Below are positions 5,060 through 64,000 of a DNA stretch of 64,000 bases, one piece after another. The notes below the pieces were generated by a model. The model was not told where the DNA came from, did not search any database, and worked only from the letters and a program-made list of their open reading frames with translations. Position 1 is the stretch's first letter, and each line of letters begins with the position of its first letter. The translations under genes and the position numbers were made by a program. Source of the stretch: an uncultured Dehalococcoidaceae bacterium. Its GTDB lineage: Bacteria > Chloroflexota > Dehalococcoidia > Dehalococcoidales > RBG-16-60-22. The stretch is from assembly GCA_964597015.1 (NCBI GenBank), contig CAZQWO010000001.1:1291-65290 (forward strand), written 5' to 3'.

Positions 5060-8000
5060 TCACTCTTCAGCTTCCAGTATCTGCAGGACGCCCTGAAGTG
5101 GCAGATTAACCCAGTCTGGCCGGTTGTTCAGCTCGTAGTTTATCTCGTAAAGGGCTTTCTCCATGAGATACGCATCAAGGAGGACCTTTTTACCTTCCTT
5201 GGCTGCTGGCAGTATTGGTAAGTCAGAAATCAATTCCAGATAAGCCTTGAGAAACGCCACCGATACCCACAGGTACCAGGCTTTAGACCACTCCTCCAGT
5301 ATGGGGAGGTCCTCCTCCCGAAGCACTGTGGCTGCCCGGCTGCGCAGCGCGGCGTATGCGGCGTAATGGAAGGAACGTATCATGCCCGCCACATCCCTGA
5401 GCGGGGAGCGCTTGATGCGTCGTTCGGTGAGATAGCGGGCAGGTTCGCCTTCAAAGTCAATGATGACGAAGTCATCGCCCGTATAGAGCACCTGCCCCAA
5501 GTGGTAGTCACCGTGGCAGCGGATGCGCATACCCGTGATACTTTGCCTGGTAATTCTCTGAAAACGCTGGATAATGGTGCTTTCCTCATCGAGAATCGTC
5601 CTGGCAATAGGCCCGGCATCATCCGGCAGCTTTGGCAATCGCTGCTGCAGAAGGCGCAACACCCGATTGGCGAAACTTCTCATCGAATGGAAGAGAGAAC
5701 GCTGGTAGGCAAGAGAAAATGGCTCCGGCGTGAACCGGGCGTCAACACTGGCCGACGCCAGCATCAGGTGCAGCTCGGCGGTACGTTGCGCCAGACGCTG
5801 TGCTGATGTAAGGTAGGGGCCAATGGTCTCCTCCGCTGTCGACGGTATGCTCATTTCAATAATGTCTAACAAAGAACCTTTTATAAGCGGCGGCGACTCT
5901 ACTTCCGGGTGGGCTAACGCCCGGTCGAAGAAAAAGCCGAGCTCATCCAGAGTATAGCGCCAGGCGTCTCCCTCGTTGGGTATATAGCCGTGAAGTATAC
6001 CGAGTGTTACCGGTTCCGGGATGAACCGGTTGTGGTATTCAAGGGCGCCGGCCACAGGAGGCGCATTGGGGAAAGACGCTTTCTCGGTGAGAAACCGGCC
6101 TATCTCAAGTTCCGGGCTTATCCCTTCTTGCATGCGGCGGAAGAGTTTGAGCATCAAGCGGTCACCGTACATGATTGAGGTGTTGGTCTGCTCCGCCTTC
6201 AGAACAGTCTGAGACAGAGTTTCGGTAGCTGGCCCCAGTAATTTATGGAAAGCACGGGTTGGGAAGGCAGCTATCCTTCCCTCCTGTCCTTTCCAGCGTC
6301 GGCGCCGGGCTATGGCCTCAAGAAGAGCAGCGGTGAAATCATCCTCAATCAGGGCGTCAAAGATGACGCCTTCACTGTTTTCACCCCTGCGCTTTGACTC
6401 TAGCCGCGCGATTACGGACTGCGGCGATCCGCTTGTTATTTCACTGGCCCGTTCCCCAGAGGCGAAGGCAATGGGGATTAGGTAGGTTTCAGGGTCGCCC
6501 TCGGTATATTCTATATTCAAGAAAATAAACTGGGCGCTGGAACCATCACACGGTATGCTGACAAAGTCTCTTATGCTCGCAGCACGAGGGTGGCGCGCCT
6601 TGCCGCCAAACCAGCGCTTCTGACGCACATAGCTGAGCAGCACTGTGGCCAAAAAGGGCCGGATTTCACGTTTGAGCAGGTCCGCCCAGCCTCCCCTGAT
6701 GCTGAGCACGGGTACAGAGAGCTCGGCCGGTATCGCCGTTGGGCTTATCACAACTGGCTGTCTCGATTCCAGGGAAAACCAGTAGAAGGCGAAAGGGCCT
6801 AAAGTGAGCGGGTAGGGAGAGTCCTCAATGGCGGGGAATTCGGACTGCCCGAAGGCCTCAACAGGTATCTTGCCTCCATCGTTAGAAAGGTCAAGGTTGG
6901 CATGCTGTGCCAGTCGGGAGAGGTTGGCCACCACCAGAACGGTTTCTTCCTGAAAGCGGCGTATAAAGGCCAGAACCTTTCGGTTATCAGCCTGTACAAA
7001 TTCAAGGCTCCCCCGTCCGAAGGCCCGGAACCGTTTCCTCTGGGTAATCAAGTGCTTTGTCCACCAGAGCAGGGAATCGGCGTTATTCTGCTGGTTTTCC
7101 ACGTTGATTGCCTGGTAGTTATATTCAGGGTCGATAATCGGTGGCAGGTAGAGCCGCTGGGGGTTGGCACTGGAGAAGCCAGCATTCTTCTCCGGGCTCC
7201 ACTGCATCGGAGTGCGGACACCGTTGCGGTCGCCGAGGTAGAAGTTGTCCCCCATGCCGATTTCGTCCCCGTAATAGAGTACCGGCGTGCCGGGCAGTGA
7301 AAACAAAAGCCCATTCATTAATTCTATTTTCCGACGGTCGTTGTTGAGCAGAGGGGCGAGCCGTCGTCTTATGCCCAGATTTACCCTTGCCTGGGGGTCA
7401 AAGGCGTAAACCCGGTACATATAGTCCCGCTCTTCGTCGGTTACCATCTCAAGCGTGAGCTCATCGTGGTTACGCAGGAACAAAGCCCACTGAGAGGTGT
7501 CTGGAATGGCCGGCGTATGCTGCAGGATGTCCATGATGGGGAAGCGATCCTCCATGCGGATAGCCATGAACAGACGTGGCATCAGCGGGAAATGGTAAGC
7601 CATGTGGCACTCATCTCCATCACCGAAGTAAGCTATCGCGTCCTCCGACCACTGGTTAGCCTCGGCAAGCAACATGCGATTCTGGAATTGCCCGTCAACC
7701 TCATGGCGCAATTTTTTCAGGAAGGCGTGCGTTTCTTCAAGGTTCTCGCAATTCGTCCCTTCTCGCTCGAAGAGATAAGGCACGGCATCAAGGCGCAGCC
7801 CGGATACCCCCATATTCATCCAGAAATTGACGGCTCTTATAAGAGCCTTCTGGACCTGCTCATTATCGAAATTCAGGTCGGGCTGGTGAGAGTAAAACCG
7901 GTGCCAGTAATAGGCTTTGGCGATGGGGTCAAAGGACCAGTTTGATGATTCGAAATCCTTGAAAATAATCCGCGCATCCTTGTATTTATCCGGTGAATCG

Positions 8001-24504: not shown

Positions 24505-24536
24505 GGAGAGAGGCGGTGCCTCTCTCCAATTTTTTT
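24505..24536 (+). terminator. rho-independent terminator
   Basis: GGAGAGAGG-CGGTG-CCTCTCTCC (perfect 9-bp stem) followed by AATTTTTTT. Confidence 0.75.
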
Positions 24537-42045: not shown

Positions 42046-42109
42046 GCAAGTGTTGCCTCGTAATTTCTTTTTAGCACAAGGTAATAATCGCGAATAAGGA
42101 GGTGAAGAA

Positions 42110-42583
42110 ATGAGGTTACCAAAGAGAGGCGAGAAGGGGTTCACACTGATTGAGTTGCTCATCGTGGTCGCCATCCTGGGCGTGCTGGCGGCGGTGGTCA
42201 TCCCCAATGTGGGCCGGTTCATCGGCCGCGGTGAAACGGAGGCGGCGCAAACGGAGTTTGCCAACGTCCAGGCAGCGACGGTCGCCATGATGACCGACAA
42301 CGAGGTAAGTGTGCTGAGAAATGCCCGCGACGGCGCTGCCAACGCCACCAGAAACATGAGCATCTTTCCCGATGACAGCGCAGTCGGCGACAAGTACCCG
42401 GACGCCAATGGAGTCAACTTCTCAGCCGGTGACGGCATCGGCTTCGTGCTCTACCAGCACGATATAGACGCTGACGCCGCCAACACCAGCCTGGTCAACT
42501 ACGTTGCCACGCAGTACACCAAGGGCACCTACTATGTTAATGCGCAAGGCACGGTAACGCAGCACACCACCGGGTATGAGTAA
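42110..42583 (+). CDS. type IV major pilin, paralog 1 (no cysteine)
   Basis: MRLPKRGEKG/FTLIELLIVVAILGVLAAVVIP is a canonical prepilin leader with Glu+5. SD AAGGAGGTG. Confidence 0.9.
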   Translation: MRLPKRGEKGFTLIELLIVVAILGVLAAVVIPNVGRFIGRGETEAAQTEFANVQAATVAMMTDNEVSVLRNARDGAANATRNMSIFPDDSAVGDKYPDANGVNFSAGDGIGFVLYQHDIDADAANTSLVNYVATQYTKGTYYVNAQGTVTQHTTGYE

Positions 42584-42623
42584 AGCAATCTTATTCCTAT
42601 AGAGGAGAGGAGGAGGTGAAGCA

Positions 42624-43097
42624 ATGAGGTTACCGAAAAGAGGCGAGAAGGGGTTCACGCTGATTGAGCTGCTCATCGTGGTCGCCATCTTGGGCGTACT
42701 GGCGGCGGTGGTCATCCCCAATGTGGGGCGGTTCATCGGCCGCGGCGAATCGGAGGCGGCGGATACCGAGCTGAGCAACGTCCAGTCTGCGGTGGTCGCC
42801 ATGATGGTTGACAACCAGATATCCACACTAAGAAATGCCAAGGACGGCGCTGCCAACGCCACCAGAAATATGTGCATCTTTCCCGATGACAGCGCAGTCG
42901 GCGACAAGTACCCGGACGCCAATGGTGATAACTTCTCAGCTGGTGACGGCATCGGCTTCGTGCTCTACCAGCACGATATGAATGCTGACGCCGCCAACAC
43001 CAGCCTGGTCAACTATGTCGCCACGCAGTACACCAAGGGCACCTATACGTGTGACGCGTCAGGCACGGTGACCCAGCGTGAGACGGGGTATGATTAA
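42624..43097 (+). CDS. type IV major pilin, paralog 2 (two cysteines)
   Basis: First 42 residues identical to paralog 1. C-terminal ..NMCIFPDD.. and ..TYTCDASG... Confidence 0.9.
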   Translation: MRLPKRGEKGFTLIELLIVVAILGVLAAVVIPNVGRFIGRGESEAADTELSNVQSAVVAMMVDNQISTLRNAKDGAANATRNMCIFPDDSAVGDKYPDANGDNFSAGDGIGFVLYQHDMNADAANTSLVNYVATQYTKGTYTCDASGTVTQRETGYD

Positions 43098-57873: not shown

Positions 57874-59278
57874 AAGTCTGGTCACCATTGACGACCTTTC
57901 TTACGGGGAAATCGAAGCGCTCTTCAACCTGGCGGACGAGATGTCCGGGGCCATGGATGAGCAGTACGGGCTGTGCCGGGGCAAGATTATGGCCAGCCTC
58001 TTCTTTGAGCCCAGCACCCGTACGCGTCTCTCCTTTGAGACGGCCATGCACCGCCTCGGTGGGAGCGTCATCACCGCCGCCGATGTCGGGGCAACATCAC
58101 TGGCCAAGGGCGAGAGCATCGCCGATATGGCCAGGGTGGTCGGCAGCTACGTTGACATGATTGTCATCCGCCATCCCTGGGAGGGGGCGGCCAAGGTGGT
58201 GTCTGACTATGCCGGCGTGCCGGTCATAAATGCCGGCGATGGCGGGCACCAGCACCCCACTCAGACGCTGCTCGACCTCTATACCATTAAAAAGGAGAAG
58301 AAGACCTTAAAAGGGCTGAAGATAGGGCTGTGGGGCGACCTCAAGTACGGGCGGACGATACACTCGCTGATTTTCGCCCTGGCCAAGTTCGGGGCCAATA
58401 TATTCTTCTACCCCACCCGGGGCCTGGAAGTACCCGAGCACGTACTGGAAAAACTCACCACCGAATACGGCGGCGAGCTGGAGACTTATGAGGCTCTCAA
58501 CCCGACAGCTAGAGAAAGTCTACTTCCCCTTGACGCTATCTATCTAACGCCGAGCAGTCCGCACCAGCTGGCCATGATGCCCGACGTGAATATCCAGGTT
58601 GAACTGAAGACGGGAATCGATGCTCTCTACGTCACCCGGCCCCAGAAGGAACGGTTTTCCGCCGCCGAGAAAGGCAAGGAGATGAAAGGGCAATTCTCCG
58701 TGGTGGACAAGAAACTGCTCAGGGGCAAGGAGTTCAAAAAGACGCTGGTGATGCACCCGCTGCCCCGCGTCGACGAGCTGGCCCTGGAGCTGGATGCCGA
58801 CCCGAGGAGCATGTATTTCAAGCAGGCGGCGCGCGGGGTGCCGGTGCGGATGGCGCTCATCGCCCTGCTGCTGGGTTTGAAAGAGGCAGCCATTCCGCAG
58901 GAAAAAACGCCGCCAGTAACATACCCCGTTTACCATCGTGATTACGGCCCCAGGTGCCCCAACCCGCGCTGTGTCTCGGTGCAGGAGACGGAAATCAAAT
59001 ACCTCAAGCCCGAATATAAAATCGTCAACCGCAGACCGCTCACCCTGCGCTGCACTTACTGCGAGCACGGCTTTGAGCCGGAGTATGTTGCCAGTTCCGA
59101 CTGGTATGAGGGCAAAACGGCCACCAAGAAGTACCACAGCGCGGCCAGCCACTGGGCGAGGAAAATCAGGCCCGGGAACCTGATTGCCTTCCGCTCGGAA
59201 CACGACGCGGAAACACTCGGCTTCAAGCCGAGTCGATACGTTAAAGTGCGACGACGCAGAAAGGGCGACACGAAATGA
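57857..59278 (+). CDS. pyrB: aspartate carbamoyltransferase catalytic chain fused to a PyrI-type zinc domain and a C-terminal tail
   Basis: Track ORF 57485-59278 trimmed to ATG 57857 ([14 protein letters not shown]) behind AAAGGAGGGG. ATCase motifs [18 protein letters not shown]. Followed by CPNPRC..(26 aa)..CTYC. Confidence 0.88.
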
Positions 59279-60579
59279 AACCATTACTGATTAAAGACGG
59301 CCAGATTATTGACCCGAGCCGGGGCATAGACGAGCGGGGCAGCCTGCTGCTCAGCGAAGGTAAAATAGAGTGGCATGGTGTGACCCCACCTCAGATTGAT
59401 TGCGAAATTCTGCACGCGCAGGGGATGGTGGTCTGCCCGGGGTTCGTTGACCTGCACTGCCACCTCAGGCAGCCCGGTTTTGAACAGAAGGAGACAATCG
59501 CCACCGGCACCCAGGCGGCGGCACGGGGAGGCTTCACCACCGTCTGCGCCATGCCCAATACCAGCCCGCCGCTGGACAATAAGGAAACCATAGACTATGT
59601 CATATCTGAGGCTGAGAAATCGGGGATTGTCCGCGTGCTGCCCATTGGCTGCGTCACCAGGGGCAGGGAGGGAAAAGAGCTGGCGGACATGGCGGCACTG
59701 GCTCAGGCGGGAGCCATCGGTTTCAGCGACGACGGCAGCCCGGTGAAAGACCCGGAAATAATGCGCCAGGCGCTGGAAAAGAGCAACGAGCTCGGCCTGC
59801 CGGTCATAGACCACTGCGAGGAGCCCTCACTCGTTGAGGGCGGGCAGATGAACGAAGGGGAGCTTGCCAAAAGGCTCGGCCTGCGCGGCATATCGTCGGC
59901 CTCCGAAGAGATTATGGTATCGCGGGACATTATGCTCGCCGGAATGACCGGGGGGCATGCGCACATCGCCCACGTCAGCACCGCGGGCGCGGTCGCCCTC
60001 ATCCGCGACGCCAAAAAGCGGGGAGTAAAGGTTACCGCCGAGGTCACCCCCCACCACCTCACCCTCACCGAGGAAGAGTGCAACGGCTACAACACCAACG
60101 CCAAGGTCTCGCCGCCTCTGCGCACGCGACGGGACAACCAGTCGCTGCTCAGGGGACTGAAAGACGGCACCATCGATATCATCGCCACCGACCATGCCCC
60201 GCACGCGCGGTCGGACAAGGAGTGCGATTTTGTCAAAGCGGCCTGCGGCATCGCCAATTTTGAGACCGCGCTGGGCAGCCTGCTCATTATAGTGCACAGC
60301 GGGCAGCTTGCGCTGGACCGACTCATCGCCAGGCTCACCTGTGAGCCAGCTAAACTTTTGAAAGACGACCTGCTCGGGACGCTGAAAATCGGGGCGCCCG
60401 CGGACGTAACCATCTTCGACCCGTATAAAGAGTGGACGGTCGACCCGGCGTCGTTCGTCTCTAAAGGAAAGAACACGCCGCTGGCCGGCCGGGTGCTCAA
60501 GGGCAAAACGATGGTCACCATCTACGGCGGCAAGCTGGTCTATAAAGATATCGCCGTTACCTTTATCGGGGAATACTAG
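59275..60579 (+). CDS. pyrC: dihydroorotase
   Basis: GFVDLHCHLRQPG metal-binding motif. DHAPH. ATGA overlap with pyrB. Confidence 0.9.
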   Translation: MKPLLIKDGQIIDPSRGIDERGSLLLSEGKIEWHGVTPPQIDCEILHAQGMVVCPGFVDLHCHLRQPGFEQKETIATGTQAAARGGFTTVCAMPNTSPPLDNKETIDYVISEAEKSGIVRVLPIGCVTRGREGKELADMAALAQAGAIGFSDDGSPVKDPEIMRQALEKSNELGLPVIDHCEEPSLVEGGQMNEGELAKRLGLRGISSASEEIMVSRDIMLAGMTGGHAHIAHVSTAGAVALIRDAKKRGVKVTAEVTPHHLTLTEEECNGYNTNAKVSPPLRTRRDNQSLLRGLKDGTIDIIATDHAPHARSDKECDFVKAACGIANFETALGSLLIIVHSGQLALDRLIARLTCEPAKLLKDDLLGTLKIGAPADVTIFDPYKEWTVDPASFVSKGKNTPLAGRVLKGKTMVTIYGGKLVYKDIAVTFIGEY

Positions 60580-60628
60580 AGGAGCTAATTTTAAAATCGG
60601 GGTGTTTAAGAGAGGCACAAATATAAGC

Positions 60629-60713
60629 AGGGAGTTTTAGAGGGGCGCAGCCCCTCTTCCCAGAATATCCCCCCTCTCCTTTGAAGGAGAGGGGGACACA
60701 GGGGGTAAGGTAG
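60629..60713. repeat. A-type twin-hairpin element, copy 1
   Basis: GTTTTAGAGGGGC-GCA-GCCCCTCT..CCCCCTCTCC-TTTGAA-GGAGAGGGGG..AGGGGGT. Near-identical to 62445-62532. A degenerate half copy (GGGGTGTTTAAGAGAGGC) lies at 60599-60616. Confidence 0.85.
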
Positions 60714-61841
60714 ATTACAAATAAAAAGACATCGCTGGTACTGGCCGACGGCTCGGTATACGAGGGCTTATCATTCGGCGCTGAGGTTGACGCCTACGGC
60801 GAGGTGGTCTTCAACACCAGCATGATAGGCTACCAGGAGATGCTGACCGACCCCTCTTACGCCGGGCAGATTGTGGTGCCCACTTACCCATTAATCGGCA
60901 ACTACGGCACCAGCCAGCAGGACGTTGAGTCGAATAGAATCCAGGTCAGGGGCTTCGTCGTCAGGGAGGAGTGCGTGCAGCCGAACCACTACCTGAACCA
61001 GAAGACCCTCCACGATTATCTGCTGGAAAATCATATCCCCGGCCTCCACGGCATTGACACGCGGTCGCTCACCCGCAAGCTGCGCTCGCACGGGGTGATG
61101 ATGGGCTACCTCACCGCCGAAAAGTCTCCCGAAGAGGCTCTGGCAGCCCTGAAAAGGTTGCCCGACTACGGCAGCGTTGATTTTGTAAGAAAGGTATCCA
61201 CCCCCCACCCCTACACCTGGGAGCCGGAGGCTGATGATGAAACCCTGCCTCATATCGTCGTGCTGGACTGCGGGCTGAAGTACAACATTTTGAGACTGTT
61301 AAAGAAGCAGGGCTGCCGCGTCACCGCCGTGCCCTGCGCCACATCGGCCAAAGACATATTGGGAATGAACCCCGACGGCATTTTGCTGTCCCCCGGCCCC
61401 GGCGACCCCGAGCTTTTGGATTATATCGTTGAAACGGTGAAGGGGCTGCTGGACAAAAGACCGATGATGGGCATCTGTCTGGGGAACCAGCTTATCGCCC
61501 GCGCCTTCGGCGGGAAGAATTTTAAGCTGAAGTTCGGCCACCGCGGCGGCAACCACCCCGTCAGGGATTTGAAAACGAGCCGGATACACATCACCGCCCA
61601 GAACCACGGCTACGCCGTTGACCCGGACACGTTGAAAGACGGCCTCGAGGTAACGCATATCAACCTGAACGACGGCACGGTGGAGGGTTTAAAACACAAG
61701 GAACTGCCCATCTTCTGCATCCAGTACCACTCCGAGGCCTCCCCCGGCCCCCTGGATAATACCTACCTCTTTGCGGATTTTATGAAGATGGTGATGGGAT
61801 TAATCCCCCTTAATCCCCCTTTTACAAAGGGGGAAATATAG
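60714..61841 (+). CDS. carA: carbamoyl-phosphate synthase small (glutaminase) subunit
   Basis: GYQEMLTDPSYAGQI, GICLGNQL, QYHSEASPGP. The conserved N-terminal strand KKTSLVLADGSVYEGLSFGA is encoded upstream of the first canonical start (GTG 60804). The frame opens after TAG 60711 and the only start-like codons are ATT 60714 and CTG 60735/60741, so the 5' end is uncertain. Confidence 0.8.
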   Translation: MTNKKTSLVLADGSVYEGLSFGAEVDAYGEVVFNTSMIGYQEMLTDPSYAGQIVVPTYPLIGNYGTSQQDVESNRIQVRGFVVREECVQPNHYLNQKTLHDYLLENHIPGLHGIDTRSLTRKLRSHGVMMGYLTAEKSPEEALAALKRLPDYGSVDFVRKVSTPHPYTWEPEADDETLPHIVVLDCGLKYNILRLLKKQGCRVTAVPCATSAKDILGMNPDGILLSPGPGDPELLDYIVETVKGLLDKRPMMGICLGNQLIARAFGGKNFKLKFGHRGGNHPVRDLKTSRIHITAQNHGYAVDPDTLKDGLEVTHINLNDGTVEGLKHKELPIFCIQYHSEASPGPLDNTYLFADFMKMVMGLIPLNPPFTKGEI

Positions 61842-61855
61842 CATGAGGGGGATTT
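61797..61855. repeat. B-type hairpin element, short copy (B0)
   Basis: TAATCCCCCTTAATCCCCC-TTTTACAAA-GGGGG..GAGGGGGATTT. It shares the 5' ~35 nt and the terminal GGGATT with units B1/B2, and it encodes the carA C-terminus IPLNPPFTKGEI. Confidence 0.75.
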
Positions 61856-61856
61856 A

Positions 61857-62267
61857 ATGTTGCCCTACAACAGGAACCTGAAACAGTATTCAAGGCAACT
61901 CAGAGAGAATATGACCGATGCGGAAAGGCAACTCTGGGCGAAGATAAGGGTGAAACAACTTAAGGGACACCAGTTCTACCGGCAGAAACCCATCGGCGAT
62001 TACATAGTCGACTTCTTTTGTCCCAGGGCAAAGCTGGCTATCGAAATCGACGGTAGCCACCACCTCGTTGGTGAGACGATTGAGTATGACAGGATAAGGG
62101 ATGATTACCTGAGCAGTCTTGGTCTGAGAGTGCTGAGGTTTAGTAACACCGATGTACTGACAAATATCGAGGGCGTCGCTAAGAGAATAGAGGAGAAAAT
62201 CCCCCTTAATCCCCCTTTTTCAAAGGGGGAGACGGCAACTTCTCCCTCTGCGAAGGGGGAGACATGA
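61857..62267 (+). CDS. DUF559 (Vsr-like endonuclease fold) domain protein
   Basis: MTDAERQLWAKIR..FYRQKPIGDYIVDFFCPRAKLAIEIDGSHH..DRIRDDYLSSLGLRVLRFSNTDV is the DUF559 pattern. The last ~22 aa (IPLNPPFSKGETATSPSAKGET) are read from repeat B1. Confidence 0.8.
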   Translation: MLPYNRNLKQYSRQLRENMTDAERQLWAKIRVKQLKGHQFYRQKPIGDYIVDFFCPRAKLAIEIDGSHHLVGETIEYDRIRDDYLSSLGLRVLRFSNTDVLTNIEGVAKRIEEKIPLNPPFSKGETATSPSAKGET

Positions 62268-62439
62268 TAGCTTCTCCCTTTGGTAAAGGGAGAATGAGAG
62301 GGATTGTAGAAATCCCCCTTTGTCCAGAGAAAATCCCCCTTAATCCCCCTTTTTCAAAGGGGGAGATGGCAACTTCTCCCTTTGCGAAGGGGGAGACATG
62401 ATAGCTTCTCCCTTTGGTAAAGGGAGAGTGAGAGGGATT
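62195..62439. repeat. two tandem B-type 111-nt units (B1 62195-62305, B2 62329-62439), 134-bp period
   Basis: By direct comparison the units differ at 3 of 111 positions. Each contains hairpins CCCCC-TTTTTCAAA-GGGGG, TCTCCC..GGGAGA and TTCTCCCTTT-GGT-AAAGGGAGAA, with termini AAAATCCCCC...GAGGGATT. Confidence 0.85.
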
Positions 62440-62444
62440 TCAAC

Positions 62445-62532
62445 GGGGGTGTTTTAGAGGGGCTGCGCCCCTCTCCCAAAAACCTCCCCCCTCTCCTTTG
62501 AAGGAGAGGGGGACTAAGGGGGTGAGATAGAG
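62445..62532. repeat. A-type twin-hairpin element, copy 2
   Basis: Same as copy 1 except that the hairpin-1 loop is TGC instead of GCA, a few spacer changes, and 2 extra nt before the ATG. Confidence 0.85.
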
Positions 62533-62955
62533 ATGAACAATAAGAAGAAAATTAAAATATTAAATCAACTACTTGATGATGGCAAGCAATTAATCGGATT
62601 ATCTCGCAATAATCAACGCTACCCGCAATGGTTAGCGCAAGTCAGAAAAACGTTAGAAATGTTGTTCAATAATAATTCAAGAGAAGCGATTAATTTTAAT
62701 GAGCATGTGCGAAGTTGGAATGCTTTTACACCACCAACCGAACAGGAAAAGCAAGAAAGATATGATAAAGAGTTAGCAATAAACTTGGATTACGCACAAG
62801 AACTAATCAGTGGGTTAGAGAGTGAAATAGAAATTCGTAAAAAATTTCGTCTGGAACTTGCTTGTCAAAAAGCAAGCCAATGCTTGCGCAAGTTCTGGCA
62901 AGTTACCGTAGAAGCCGCGGTTGAAGGCTTAATTAATAACCTTAAGAAACACTGA
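62533..62955 (+). CDS. hypothetical protein encoded by a strikingly AT-rich orphan ORF
   Basis: 140 aa (MNNKKKIKILNQLLDDGKQ..). The ATG immediately follows A-element copy 2. Composition is visibly far more AT-rich than all flanking genes. Confidence 0.55.
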   Translation: MNNKKKIKILNQLLDDGKQLIGLSRNNQRYPQWLAQVRKTLEMLFNNNSREAINFNEHVRSWNAFTPPTEQEKQERYDKELAINLDYAQELISGLESEIEIRKKFRLELACQKASQCLRKFWQVTVEAAVEGLINNLKKH

Positions 62956-62976
62956 CAACTTAAAGGAGTAAAATTT

Positions 62977-64000
62977 TTGAAACTCTCTAAAGTCTTGATT
63001 ATAGGGTCGGGGCCCATCATAATCGGGCAGGCGGCGGAGTTTGACTACGCCGGCACGCAGGCCTGCAAGGCCATGCGCGAGGAGGGCGTCATTTCGGTAC
63101 TGGTCAACTCCAACCCGGCCACCATCATGACCGACGAGGACATCGCCGACGTCGTCTACATTGAGCCGCTCACCGTGGAGGTGATTTCCCGCATCATAGA
63201 AAGGGAGCGACCCGACGGCCTTTTGCCCACTCTCGGCGGGCAGACCGGCCTGAATCTGGCCGTGGCCCTGGCCGACGCCGGTGTTCTGGACAAGTACAAT
63301 GTGAAATGCCTCGGCACGCCCATCCAGACCATCCGCAACGCCGAGGACAGGGAGCTTTTCAAGCAATTATTAATCAGAATCGGCCAGCCGGTGCCGCCCA
63401 GCAAAACGGTCAACACGCTGGAAGATGCCCGCAAAGTGGCGGCGGAAATCGGTCTGCCGGTCATCATCCGCCCCGGCTACACGCTGGGGGGGACGGGGGG
63501 CGGCATGGCCTATACCTGGGACGAGCTCGACCAGGTGGCCAGAAGCGGGCTCGCCGCCAGCCCCATCCACCAGGTGCTCGTCGAACAATCGGTCGTTGGC
63601 TGGAAGGAAATCGAGTACGAGGTCATGCGCGACGCCGCCAATACCTGTATCACCGTCTGCAACATGGAGAACATCGACCCCATGGGCGTGCACACCGGCG
63701 ACAGCATCGTGGTCGCCCCCAGCCAGACGCTGACCAACAAGGAATACCAGATGCTGCGCACCGCCGGCCTGGATATAATCCGGGCGCTGGGGATTGAGGG
63801 GGGCTGCAATGTCCAGTTCGCCCTGGACCCCAAAAGCCAGCAGTACTACGTTATCGAGGTCAACCCCCGCGTCAGCCGCTCTTCCGCCCTGGCCAGCAAG
63901 GCCACCGGCTACCCCATAGCCCGCGTCGCCTCCAAGATAGCGGTGGGCAAACGGCTTGACGAGATACCCAACGCCGTCACCGGCAAGACCATGGCCTCCT
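62977..64000 (+). CDS. carB: carbamoyl-phosphate synthase large subunit, 5' part; continues beyond the right edge
   Basis: Not in the track because there is no stop in the window. Own translation from TTG 62977 behind AAAGGAG: [71 protein letters not shown].. Confidence 0.9.

Follow-up and report, generated by a model that had tools for sequence, protein, structure and literature searches.

Organization of the carA-carB junction

The 64,000-nt stretch of contig CAZQWO010000001.1 analyzed here (hereafter the window, in whose numbering all positions are given) comes from an uncultured Dehalococcoidaceae bacterium, and its 3' end holds a pyr operon made up of pyrR, pyrBI, pyrC (59275-60579), carA and carB. 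The subject of this study is the sequence between the carA stop codon at 61841 and the TTG start codon of carB at 62977, which are 1135 bp apart. It contains a gene for a DUF559/Vsr-like nuclease, hairpin repeat modules of an A and a B type, and a 140-aa open reading frame (ORF), referred to as orf140 (Table 1). An earlier note on this DNA had described these elements from the letters alone, and its coordinates were confirmed when the sequence was re-checked. At least six independent assemblies of this species (L001-L008) show the identical arrangement, which is therefore no assembly artefact; DUF559 and orf140 are adjacent and co-oriented in all assemblies of the species.

Windowed GC content falls to its minimum for the whole 64 kb in orf140 (0.36-0.37, with a window mean of 0.539 and a standard deviation of 0.046), in agreement with the AT-rich composition noticed earlier; the DUF559 gene has a GC content of 0.49. 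Other low-GC patches of the window, at 11.3-12.1, 22.1-22.8 and 50.5-50.8 kb, are non-coding and hold no additional cassettes. The hairpin motif CCCCCTT-N4-AAGGGGG is found seven times in the junction region, where 0.03 occurrences are expected by chance. Each gene downstream of carA has a strong Shine-Dalgarno sequence (SD) of its own, GAGGGGGAT for DUF559, AAGGGGGTGAG for orf140 and, as the earlier note had it, AAAGGAG for carB. Consensus scans of the insert found no plus-strand terminator and no promoter above chance, and the inserted genes probably ride on read-through transcription of pyrR-pyrBI-pyrC-carA-carB.

Table 1. Positions of genes and repeat elements at the carA-carB junction of the window.
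Feature	Position	Strand	Remarks
A-type two-hairpin element, copy 1	60630..60714	+	carA leader; strong SD at end (GGGGGTAAGG); 85% identical to 62447-62531
carA (carbamoyl-phosphate synthase small chain)	60714..61841	+	Pfam CPSase_sm_chain and GATase
Short B module	61802..61855	+	outer stem AATCCCCC/GGGGGATT around hairpin 1 (61814-61834); 3' arm is the DUF559 SD
DUF559/Vsr-like PD-(D/E)XK nuclease gene	61857..62267	+	core 61857-62201; last ~21 codons run into B hairpins
B unit 1	62193..62305	+	left arm AAATCCCCC; hairpins 1 (62210-62230), 2 (62241-62262) and 3 (62272-62294); right arm GAGAGGGATT (62296-62305)
Partial B start (GTAGAAATCCCCCTTTGTCC...)	62306..62326	+	between the full B units
B unit 2	62327..62439	+	97% identical to unit 1
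A-type two-hairpin element, copy 2	62447..62531	+	SD AAGGGGGTGAG at end, 8 nt 5' of the orf140 ATG
orf140, AT-rich cassette gene	62533..62955	+	N-terminal ~95-aa helical domain, then long C-terminal helix
carB SD and start	62961..62979	+	SD AAAGGAG 62961-62967, TTG start 62977; Pfam CPSase_L_D1/D2 from the first residues

Variability of the junction in related genomes

A carA-anchored scan of metagenomes returned 80 loci with carA 72-90% identical to that of the window, and both ends of the junction were visible in 53 of them. Nine of these junctions are empty (at most 40 nt; L103, L104, L107, L124, L152, L157, L160, L166 and L168), as the earlier note had anticipated, and three have a short spacer of 87-180 nt. 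The remaining junctions are filled, ten with DUF559 and 31 without it; the 41 filled junctions hold 35 distinct inserts, and clustering of the slot proteins gave about 20 families. At the empty sites the carA product ends in ..FLEMV(R/K)xxx*, and the gene either directly adjoins the start of carB or overlaps it; by this layout they represent the ancestral tight junction. Comparison with this carA tail indicates that the insert of the window replaces the last few carA codons.

The contents of the junction already differ among loci whose carA is 88-90% identical to that of the window: L089 carries DUF559 and a 203-aa gene, L091 a solo B module and a 287-aa TIR-like gene, L093 other hairpins and a gene for a protein with two transmembrane segments, and L096, which is free of hairpins, a gene for a 273-aa membrane protein with an ATG that overlaps the stop codon of carA. 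The gene adjacent to carB is nearly always AT-rich (GC content 0.33-0.42, versus 0.55-0.62 for carA), and its stop codon abuts the carB SD. Among the fetched loci, DUF559 sits 5' of more than twelve unrelated genes.

Taken together, these comparisons make it likely that this Dehalococcoidales clade has, at the carA-carB junction inside the pyr operon, a hypervariable accessory-gene slot with two independent parts. The window would hold one allele of this slot, in which a hairpin-DUF559-hairpin module is followed by an AT-rich single-gene cassette next to carB. The module would be kept by purifying selection and exchanged between lineages as a unit ending at hairpins; the cassette would be drawn from a slot-linked pool, in which the same N-terminal domain is fused elsewhere to TIR-like, HEPN-like (Ymh) or transmembrane parts. 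Turnover most likely proceeds by two processes, the replacement of alleles by way of the conserved carA and carB flanks and recombination between hairpin modules, the latter of which would explain solo B modules, tandem B units and the presence or absence of DUF559. The proposal in the earlier note of a mobile or acquired cassette in an essential operon is upheld in that the insert is accessory, foreign in composition, exchangeable and missing from empty sites, but it does not hold for a single, one-off cassette.

The DUF559 nuclease gene

The DUF559 protein matches PF04480 over profile positions 2-108 of 109 (E=9.5e-36; 122.4 bits, with a cut-off of 20.6), and its nearest relative of solved structure is the uncharacterised protein PDB 3hrl (E=1e-20). 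The predicted D...ExD...H active site consists of D52, E63, D65 and H69, each conserved in at least 97% of 120 close homologues, and ratios of non-synonymous to synonymous substitution (dN/dS) of 0.09-0.32 indicate purifying selection. A hairpin-encoded peptide, IPLxPP(F/L)xKGE, ends 118 of the 120 closest proteins, and the ORF length varies with read-through from 121 to 194 aa; by this pattern the DUF559 ORF extends only accidentally into the conserved hairpin array 3' of it. That repeats supply the last codons of both carA and the DUF559 ORF, as had been noticed before, is correct: the carA frame continues to a TAG at 61839-61841 and its final 13 codons (LIPLNPPFTKGEI) are encoded by the B module, as are about 21 codons of the DUF559 ORF.

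In a scan for the DUF559 core with one genome per species, all close homologues (72-85% identical; L009-L020 and L023) came from metagenome-assembled genomes (MAGs) of Dehalococcoidales, with at most one close copy per species genome. Wherever the neighboring genes were reached, these homologues lie in the pyr operon between carA and carB, with the exception of L016, where DUF559 (5700-6345) is directly 3' of pyrC at a locus that lacks carA. Exact-sequence look-ups of additional DUF559 alleles led to the same junction (P0020 on 21 contigs and P0085 on eight). A recent private insertion is contradicted by these homologues (>72%), which, wherever their context was visible, share the junction in other Dehalococcoidales species; conversely, simple ancestral presence with vertical inheritance of DUF559 was rejected on the carA-anchored sample and the weak correlation with carA described below. 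A more distant DUF559 (67% identical) in L126 (74-418) lies upstream of carA, not downstream. DUF559 appeared in no title or abstract of the literature searched.

Hairpin modules and their exchange

B unit 1 folds as a single long imperfect palindrome (-58.6 kcal/mol, z-score -4.1). The short B module at the 5' side of DUF559 folds as RNA with -34.1 kcal/mol (z-score -2.8), a structure in which the DUF559 SD is paired and which translation of carA would open; in relatives, DUF559 is preceded by the motif TGAG(G/A)GGGATTT(A/T)ATG. The tandem period of 111 nt given by the earlier note has to be revised to 134 nt, the array being two 113-nt units and a 21-nt partial one. The B modules end in AAATCCCCC and GGGGGATTT, and the two sequences at 62197-62205 and 61847-61855 are exact, as that note had observed. 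They do not form an inverted repeat bracketing DUF559, however: the sequence at 61847-61855 is the right arm of the short B module, and that at 62197-62205 is the left arm of B unit 1, so that DUF559 lies between direct copies of a palindromic module. A 45-aa ORF spanning the B units (62264-62401) has no Pfam match and is repeat sequence, not a gene.

A miniature inverted-repeat transposable element (MITE) would have terminal inverted repeats, a target-site duplication and many copies; the B modules have the ends just named, no target-site duplication was seen, all B copies of the window are in the carA-carB junction, and no further B or A copies are present within the 64 kb. For the idea of a multi-copy cassette, raised in the earlier note, there was no sign, with a single copy in 64 kb, and a multi-copy transposon gained no support on the same ground and on the limit of one close DUF559 per species genome. 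The sole other perfect C/G-run hairpin outside the pyr operon is at 24505-24527 (GGAGAGAGGCGGTGCCTCTCTCC), and the window also contains a 300-nt direct repeat of 87% identity (42097-42396 and 42611-42910, 514 nt from start to start). Short-read contigs of L002, L003, L006 and L007 break exactly at the B/A repeat block, and the broken contigs of the species end past DUF559 or start shortly before orf140; in protein P0004, a spurious N-terminus, MGSEMCIRDS, is a typical contig-end artefact.

The identity of DUF559 between pairs of loci hardly follows that of carA (Spearman 0.17, 350 pairs). The window and L015, for example, are 70% identical in carA and 85% in DUF559, and L013 and L165 are 85% identical in carA and 63% in DUF559. 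L099 and L101 share a stretch of about 450 bp that starts ~25 nt before the end of carA and runs through the 5' hairpin and DUF559 up to and including hairpin 1; their DUF559 cores are 96% identical with carA at about 80%, and the two loci are unrelated immediately after hairpin 1. Similarity between the window and L089, and between the window and L094, is likewise lost at hairpin 1 or 2. B modules also occur alone, without DUF559, in L091 and L118, and in tandem in the window. On these comparisons the hairpin-DUF559-hairpin unit behaves as a separate exchangeable module. The solo and tandem B modules, the shared segments ending at hairpins and the weak tracking of carA fit a combination of module recombination and allelic exchange via carA and carB.

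We surveyed 67 DUF559 loci from many phyla for the same association. Perfect C-run/G-run hairpins occur at 2.01/kb within 250 nt of DUF559, compared with 0.06/kb in all other DNA and 0.47/kb in other non-ORF DNA, an enrichment of 33-fold and 4.3-fold, respectively; the cross-phylum enrichment is real but moderate. At least one perfect hairpin is present at 40 of the 67 loci and hairpins on both sides at 11, nine of which have the same arm on each side. In a Brocadia contig (L033), direct copies of a 135-nt two-hairpin module lie on either side of DUF559, and similar brackets were found in Clostridia, Cloacimonadota and Gallionella. A published inverted-repeat screen lists "DUF559 domain-containing protein" as 14-fold enriched among overlapped genes, without comment (PMC9881135).

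orf140 and the cassette pool

A word-indexed search of 5.8 billion proteins returned only orf140 itself and an 81% variant, which is found in L169 with the same layout of A element, ORF and carB (dN/dS 0.35 relative to orf140). More sensitive comparisons do not bear out the "orphan" status assigned to this ORF by the earlier note. orf140 matches positions 1-103 of 264 of the PADLOC model PDC-S35 (E=2.6e-5), and blastp aligns it with the N-termini of other slot cassettes at 27-33% identity (E 2e-7 to 2e-5). An exhaustive HMMER search of 1.84 billion representatives yielded 16 relatives with a common ~95-aa N-terminal domain (N-domain), which is followed by a TIR-like domain (P0130), a Hypoth_Ymh domain (P0131), a transmembrane tail or a short helix. 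Contigs were fetched for five of these relatives, and in four cases (P0128, P0124, P0123 and P0131) the gene adjoins carA and/or carB; by this context the N-domain pool is largely tied to the carA-carB slot.

The AlphaFold2 model of orf140 is all-helical, with a mean predicted local distance difference test score of 90.5 and a single helix from residue 70 to 139; a fold search with this model in the PDB gave no match at E<0.001. The protein has no Pfam TIR domain and does not match PDC-S35 over its full length, and a literature search on PDC-S35 found nothing. The relatives, shared N-domain, genomic context and model together indicate that orf140 is a real member of the slot gene pool without an effector domain. 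As it consists of only the N-domain and a long helix, it is probably a stand-alone adaptor or a reduced form.

Other cassettes of the slot carry recognizable domains. CAP12/Pycsar-type TIR-like proteins matching PDC-S35 are encoded in L018 and L180, and full-length TIR-like PDC-S35 relatives are found in L018, L091, L102, L148 and L180; Hypoth_Ymh (HEPN-like) cassettes occur in L154 and L136 and an AbiJ_NTD4 cassette in L156. The TIR-like/PDC-S35, Hypoth_Ymh and AbiJ_NTD4 matches are above threshold, that of Mrr_cat in L150 is weak and below the Pfam cut-off, and many cassettes have no match. Weak 8xMP proteins with two transmembrane segments are also present (a literature search on 8xMP gave unrelated papers only), as is a HicA/HicB-like pair, the latter from reading the translations only. 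PADLOC found no complete validated defence system among the slot cassettes. Domains of this kind are typical of abortive-infection and defence islands, and a defence role for the cassettes is predicted from them.

The TIR-like cassettes of L018 and L091, whose carA genes are 72% and 89% identical to that of the window, are highly similar by eye in their C-terminal halves and unrelated in their N-terminal halves; given these different host backgrounds, domain shuffling within the slot is suggested. In L109/L111, L119, L125, L142 and L167 the slot holds small genes of about 95-120 aa that resemble GIY-YIG nucleases, as judged from translations only, and that adjoin other repeat-derived peptides (SLRGALATKQSR.., LLRFARNDN); this suggests a second pairing of a nuclease with palindromes. 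A GC-normal gene of about 486 aa lies between carA and DUF559 or the cassette in L019 (4344-5807), L142 and L150; from its N-terminal sequence we take it to resemble an archaeal-type phosphoenolpyruvate carboxylase.

carA, carB and the A-type leader element

The carA gene of the window probably starts at a non-canonical ATT codon at 60714, which immediately follows a TAG and lies 8 nt 3' of a strong SD. The corresponding codon is ATA in the closest relatives and ATG in more distant ones, and the N-terminal residues are conserved among relatives from this position on. Gene callers picked a canonical start; the first of these, GTG 60804 and ATG 60822, would drop at least 30 conserved N-terminal residues. 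The carB start has the same position in relatives, as TTG or ATG.

Copy 1 of the A element folds into two hairpins (-49 kcal/mol, z-score -3.7). The element is present at -70/-36 upstream of carA in L089-L092, L096, L101, L009, L011, L118 and L123, as well as in L134, L137, L140 and L149, and its stems show compensatory changes, such as CTCTCC/GGAGAG for CTTCCCC/GGGGAAG; in many lineages it forms a conserved leader between pyrC and carA. The A element also precedes the 81%-identical orf140 variant of L169. An Rfam scan of 60000-64000 gave only a chance-level miRNA match, placing the A and B elements outside known RNA families. On the minus strand, hairpin b of the downstream A element together with a T-run (62486-62513) scores as terminator-like and could stop antisense transcription into the operon.

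Alternative explanations

Several observations weigh against a hypervariable slot as set out above. Within populations a DUF559 allele is always found with the same cassette, and turnover of the slot must therefore be slow; the hairpin-free junction of L096 also carries a cassette, so hairpins are not required for insertion. The data are mostly metagenome contigs and MAGs, and the repeats break assemblies (L002, L003, L006 and L007). Co-transcription of the inserts with the operon is deduced from sequence, and the defence function of the slot genes is a prediction. The PDC-S35 family is no more than a candidate, and no domain is recognizable in several cassettes, while GC-normal, housekeeping-like inserts (the 314-aa EVE-domain protein and the ~486-aa gene) indicate that the slot is not purely defensive.

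Free-standing homing by the DUF559 nuclease, which would cut the DUF559-less junction of an incoming related genome and be copied in by repair, with the hairpins limiting its expression and protecting the operon, would explain much of the distribution. The gene is small, encodes a nuclease and is placed exactly between carA and carB, which are conserved and normally coupled; it is patchily distributed (nine empty and ten DUF559-bearing junctions among 53), under purifying selection and incongruent with carA, and L099 and L101 carry a near-identical DUF559 segment in diverged backgrounds. The GIY-YIG-like genes found in the same slot recall a known homing endonuclease family. There are precedents in the VSR/DUF559 group of PD-(D/E)XK enzymes, which includes the group I intron homing endonuclease PDB 3r3p (PMC3424549), and in the intergenic free-standing homing endonucleases described for T4-like phages (PMC2988022). 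However, neither a cleavage site nor an activity is known for any protein of the DUF559 family, the contents of the slot vary even where DUF559 is absent (31 of the 41 filled junctions), L099 and L101 display no clear co-conversion gradient into carA, and more distant DUF559 genes occur in many unrelated contexts; homing would also need both alleles to meet in the same cell, and how these organisms transfer genes is uncharacterised. We regard this explanation as doubtful, if by no means far-fetched. A role of the hairpin modules chiefly at the RNA level, as stabilisers, insulators or translational couplers that let foreign genes sit in an operon, with recombination incidental, is also rather unlikely, at slightly better odds than homing. 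The strong RNA folding (z-scores -2.8 to -4.1), the pairing of the DUF559 SD by a 5' module through which carA translation passes, the C-run and G-run arms that mimic anti-SD and SD, and the A element, a conserved carA leader with compensatory stem changes that carries an SD, all speak for it. Sequestration of the SD was nevertheless rejected as a general role of the 5' hairpin, being true of the window and failing in many relatives, which have one hairpin and a free SD or, in L089, no hairpin. The stems of hairpin 1 are near-invariant (CCCCC/GGGGG) and do not covary, the shared DUF559 segments end at hairpins, and the hairpin sequence on either side of DUF559 is the same in unrelated phyla, which points to sequence-specific recognition or co-transfer. 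DUF559 homing and an RNA-level role of the hairpins are compatible additions to the slot and not exclusive rivals of it.

The arrangement also invites comparison with an integron-like system, in which the B modules would be attC-like sites and an unlinked recombinase would move the cassettes. The inserts are promoterless single ORFs expressed from an upstream promoter, and imperfect palindromes of about 113 nt, resembling chromosomal integron repeats, bracket DUF559 in direct orientation, with tandem and solo modules and a break of similarity at the hairpin. No integrase or recombinase gene lies within 10 kb upstream, however, where we find surA-like, hom, thrC-like, folE, gyrB, pyrR, pyrBI and pyrC, and carB is directly downstream; none of the loci has a module separating the final cassette from carB, some cassettes are free of modules (L096), and the sequence contains no GTTRRRY-type core sites. 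We therefore consider an integron-like system very unlikely. Still less credible is the suggestion of the earlier note that DUF559 and orf140 form a single nuclease-plus-partner system acquired together. It would account for their constant adjacency in the species, and both have weak matches to defence-related PADLOC models; yet DUF559 pairs with many unrelated downstream genes, relatives of orf140 occur without DUF559 (L183, L186, L146 and L154), and the two genes differ in GC content, and this co-occurrence largely refutes a two-gene system. With regard to the slot itself, a bolder extension may be put forward tentatively: the hairpin-DUF559-hairpin unit might be a widespread, undescribed selfish nuclease module, whose nuclease would recognise the flanking palindromes (TCCCCCTT...AAGGGGGA) and which would spread by recombination there across Dehalococcoidales, Brocadia, Cloacimonadota, Clostridia and Gallionella. 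In Dehalococcoidales it would seed or maintain a recombination-prone, integrase-free slot in an essential operon, a private site of exchange for genes of the abortive-infection type.

Comparison with known systems

A slot of this kind would mean that an essential biosynthetic operon can host variable cargo between subunit genes with no need of an integrase, and scans for defence islands or integrons would overlook such hotspots. For uncultured Chloroflexota it would offer a compact place to mine for single-gene immune or toxin candidates, and the large uncharacterised DUF559 family gains a testable lead in its palindrome association and module-like exchange. The locus also illustrates pitfalls of annotation, with ORFs that extend into repeats, a wrong carA start and assemblies that break at repeats.

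Chromosomal integron arrays consist of promoterless ORFs with imperfect palindromes of about 110-130 nt between them and a promoter upstream. The slot differs from them in that the 10 kb upstream hold neither IntI nor attI, attC core sites are absent and the terminal cassette is not followed by a palindrome; some cassettes have none at all. REPtrons, formed by repetitive extragenic palindromic (REP) elements and REP-associated tyrosine transposases (RAYT), combine a Y1 HUH transposase with inverted REPs in many dispersed copies. Like these, the DUF559 module is a gene for a small DNA-processing enzyme bracketed by GC-rich palindromes, an association that extends across distant bacteria; in contrast to them, the enzyme has a PD-(D/E)XK and not an HUH/Y1 fold, the flanking modules are direct rather than inverted, and the hairpins are not present in high copy number (one other in 64 kb, and 0.06/kb away from DUF559).

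Nearby RNA hairpins are known to restrain the expression of free-standing homing genes of T4-like phages. The seg and mob genes of T4-like phages, which undergo intronless homing, share with DUF559 the form of a small intergenic nuclease gene with a patchy distribution and an incongruent phylogeny (PMC2988022). DUF559 is hosted by a cellular chromosome and not a phage, however, its nuclease is of the DUF559/Vsr-like family, no member of which has been shown to home, and the carA-carB slot varies also without the nuclease. As for the cargo, orf140 resembles the PDC-S35/CAP12/Pycsar-type TIR effectors in their N-terminal 103 positions but has a long C-terminal helix in place of the TIR-like domain.

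The closest parallels are the core defence hotspots of Pseudomonas aeruginosa (PMC10250203) and the defence island repertoire of E. coli (PMC10121019). With 35 distinct inserts in 41 filled junctions and nine empty ones, the junction has the character of a hotspot flanked by core genes: in both cases a fixed site between core genes holds differing, often defence-type and AT-rich cargo that is exchanged, and empty alleles exist. The slot departs from the known hotspots in lying inside an operon, between the normally translationally coupled subunit genes of one essential enzyme, in its cargo of one to three promoterless genes rather than multi-kb islands, in having no integrase or mobile-element backbone, and in that part of its gene pool appears tied to the site; its defence activity is predicted from domains only. 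By analogy with these systems, the slot is best described as a variant of core-gene-flanked hotspots to which a nuclease-plus-palindrome module is coupled; this module recalls REP/RAYT systems or free-standing homing endonucleases without falling within the definition of either.

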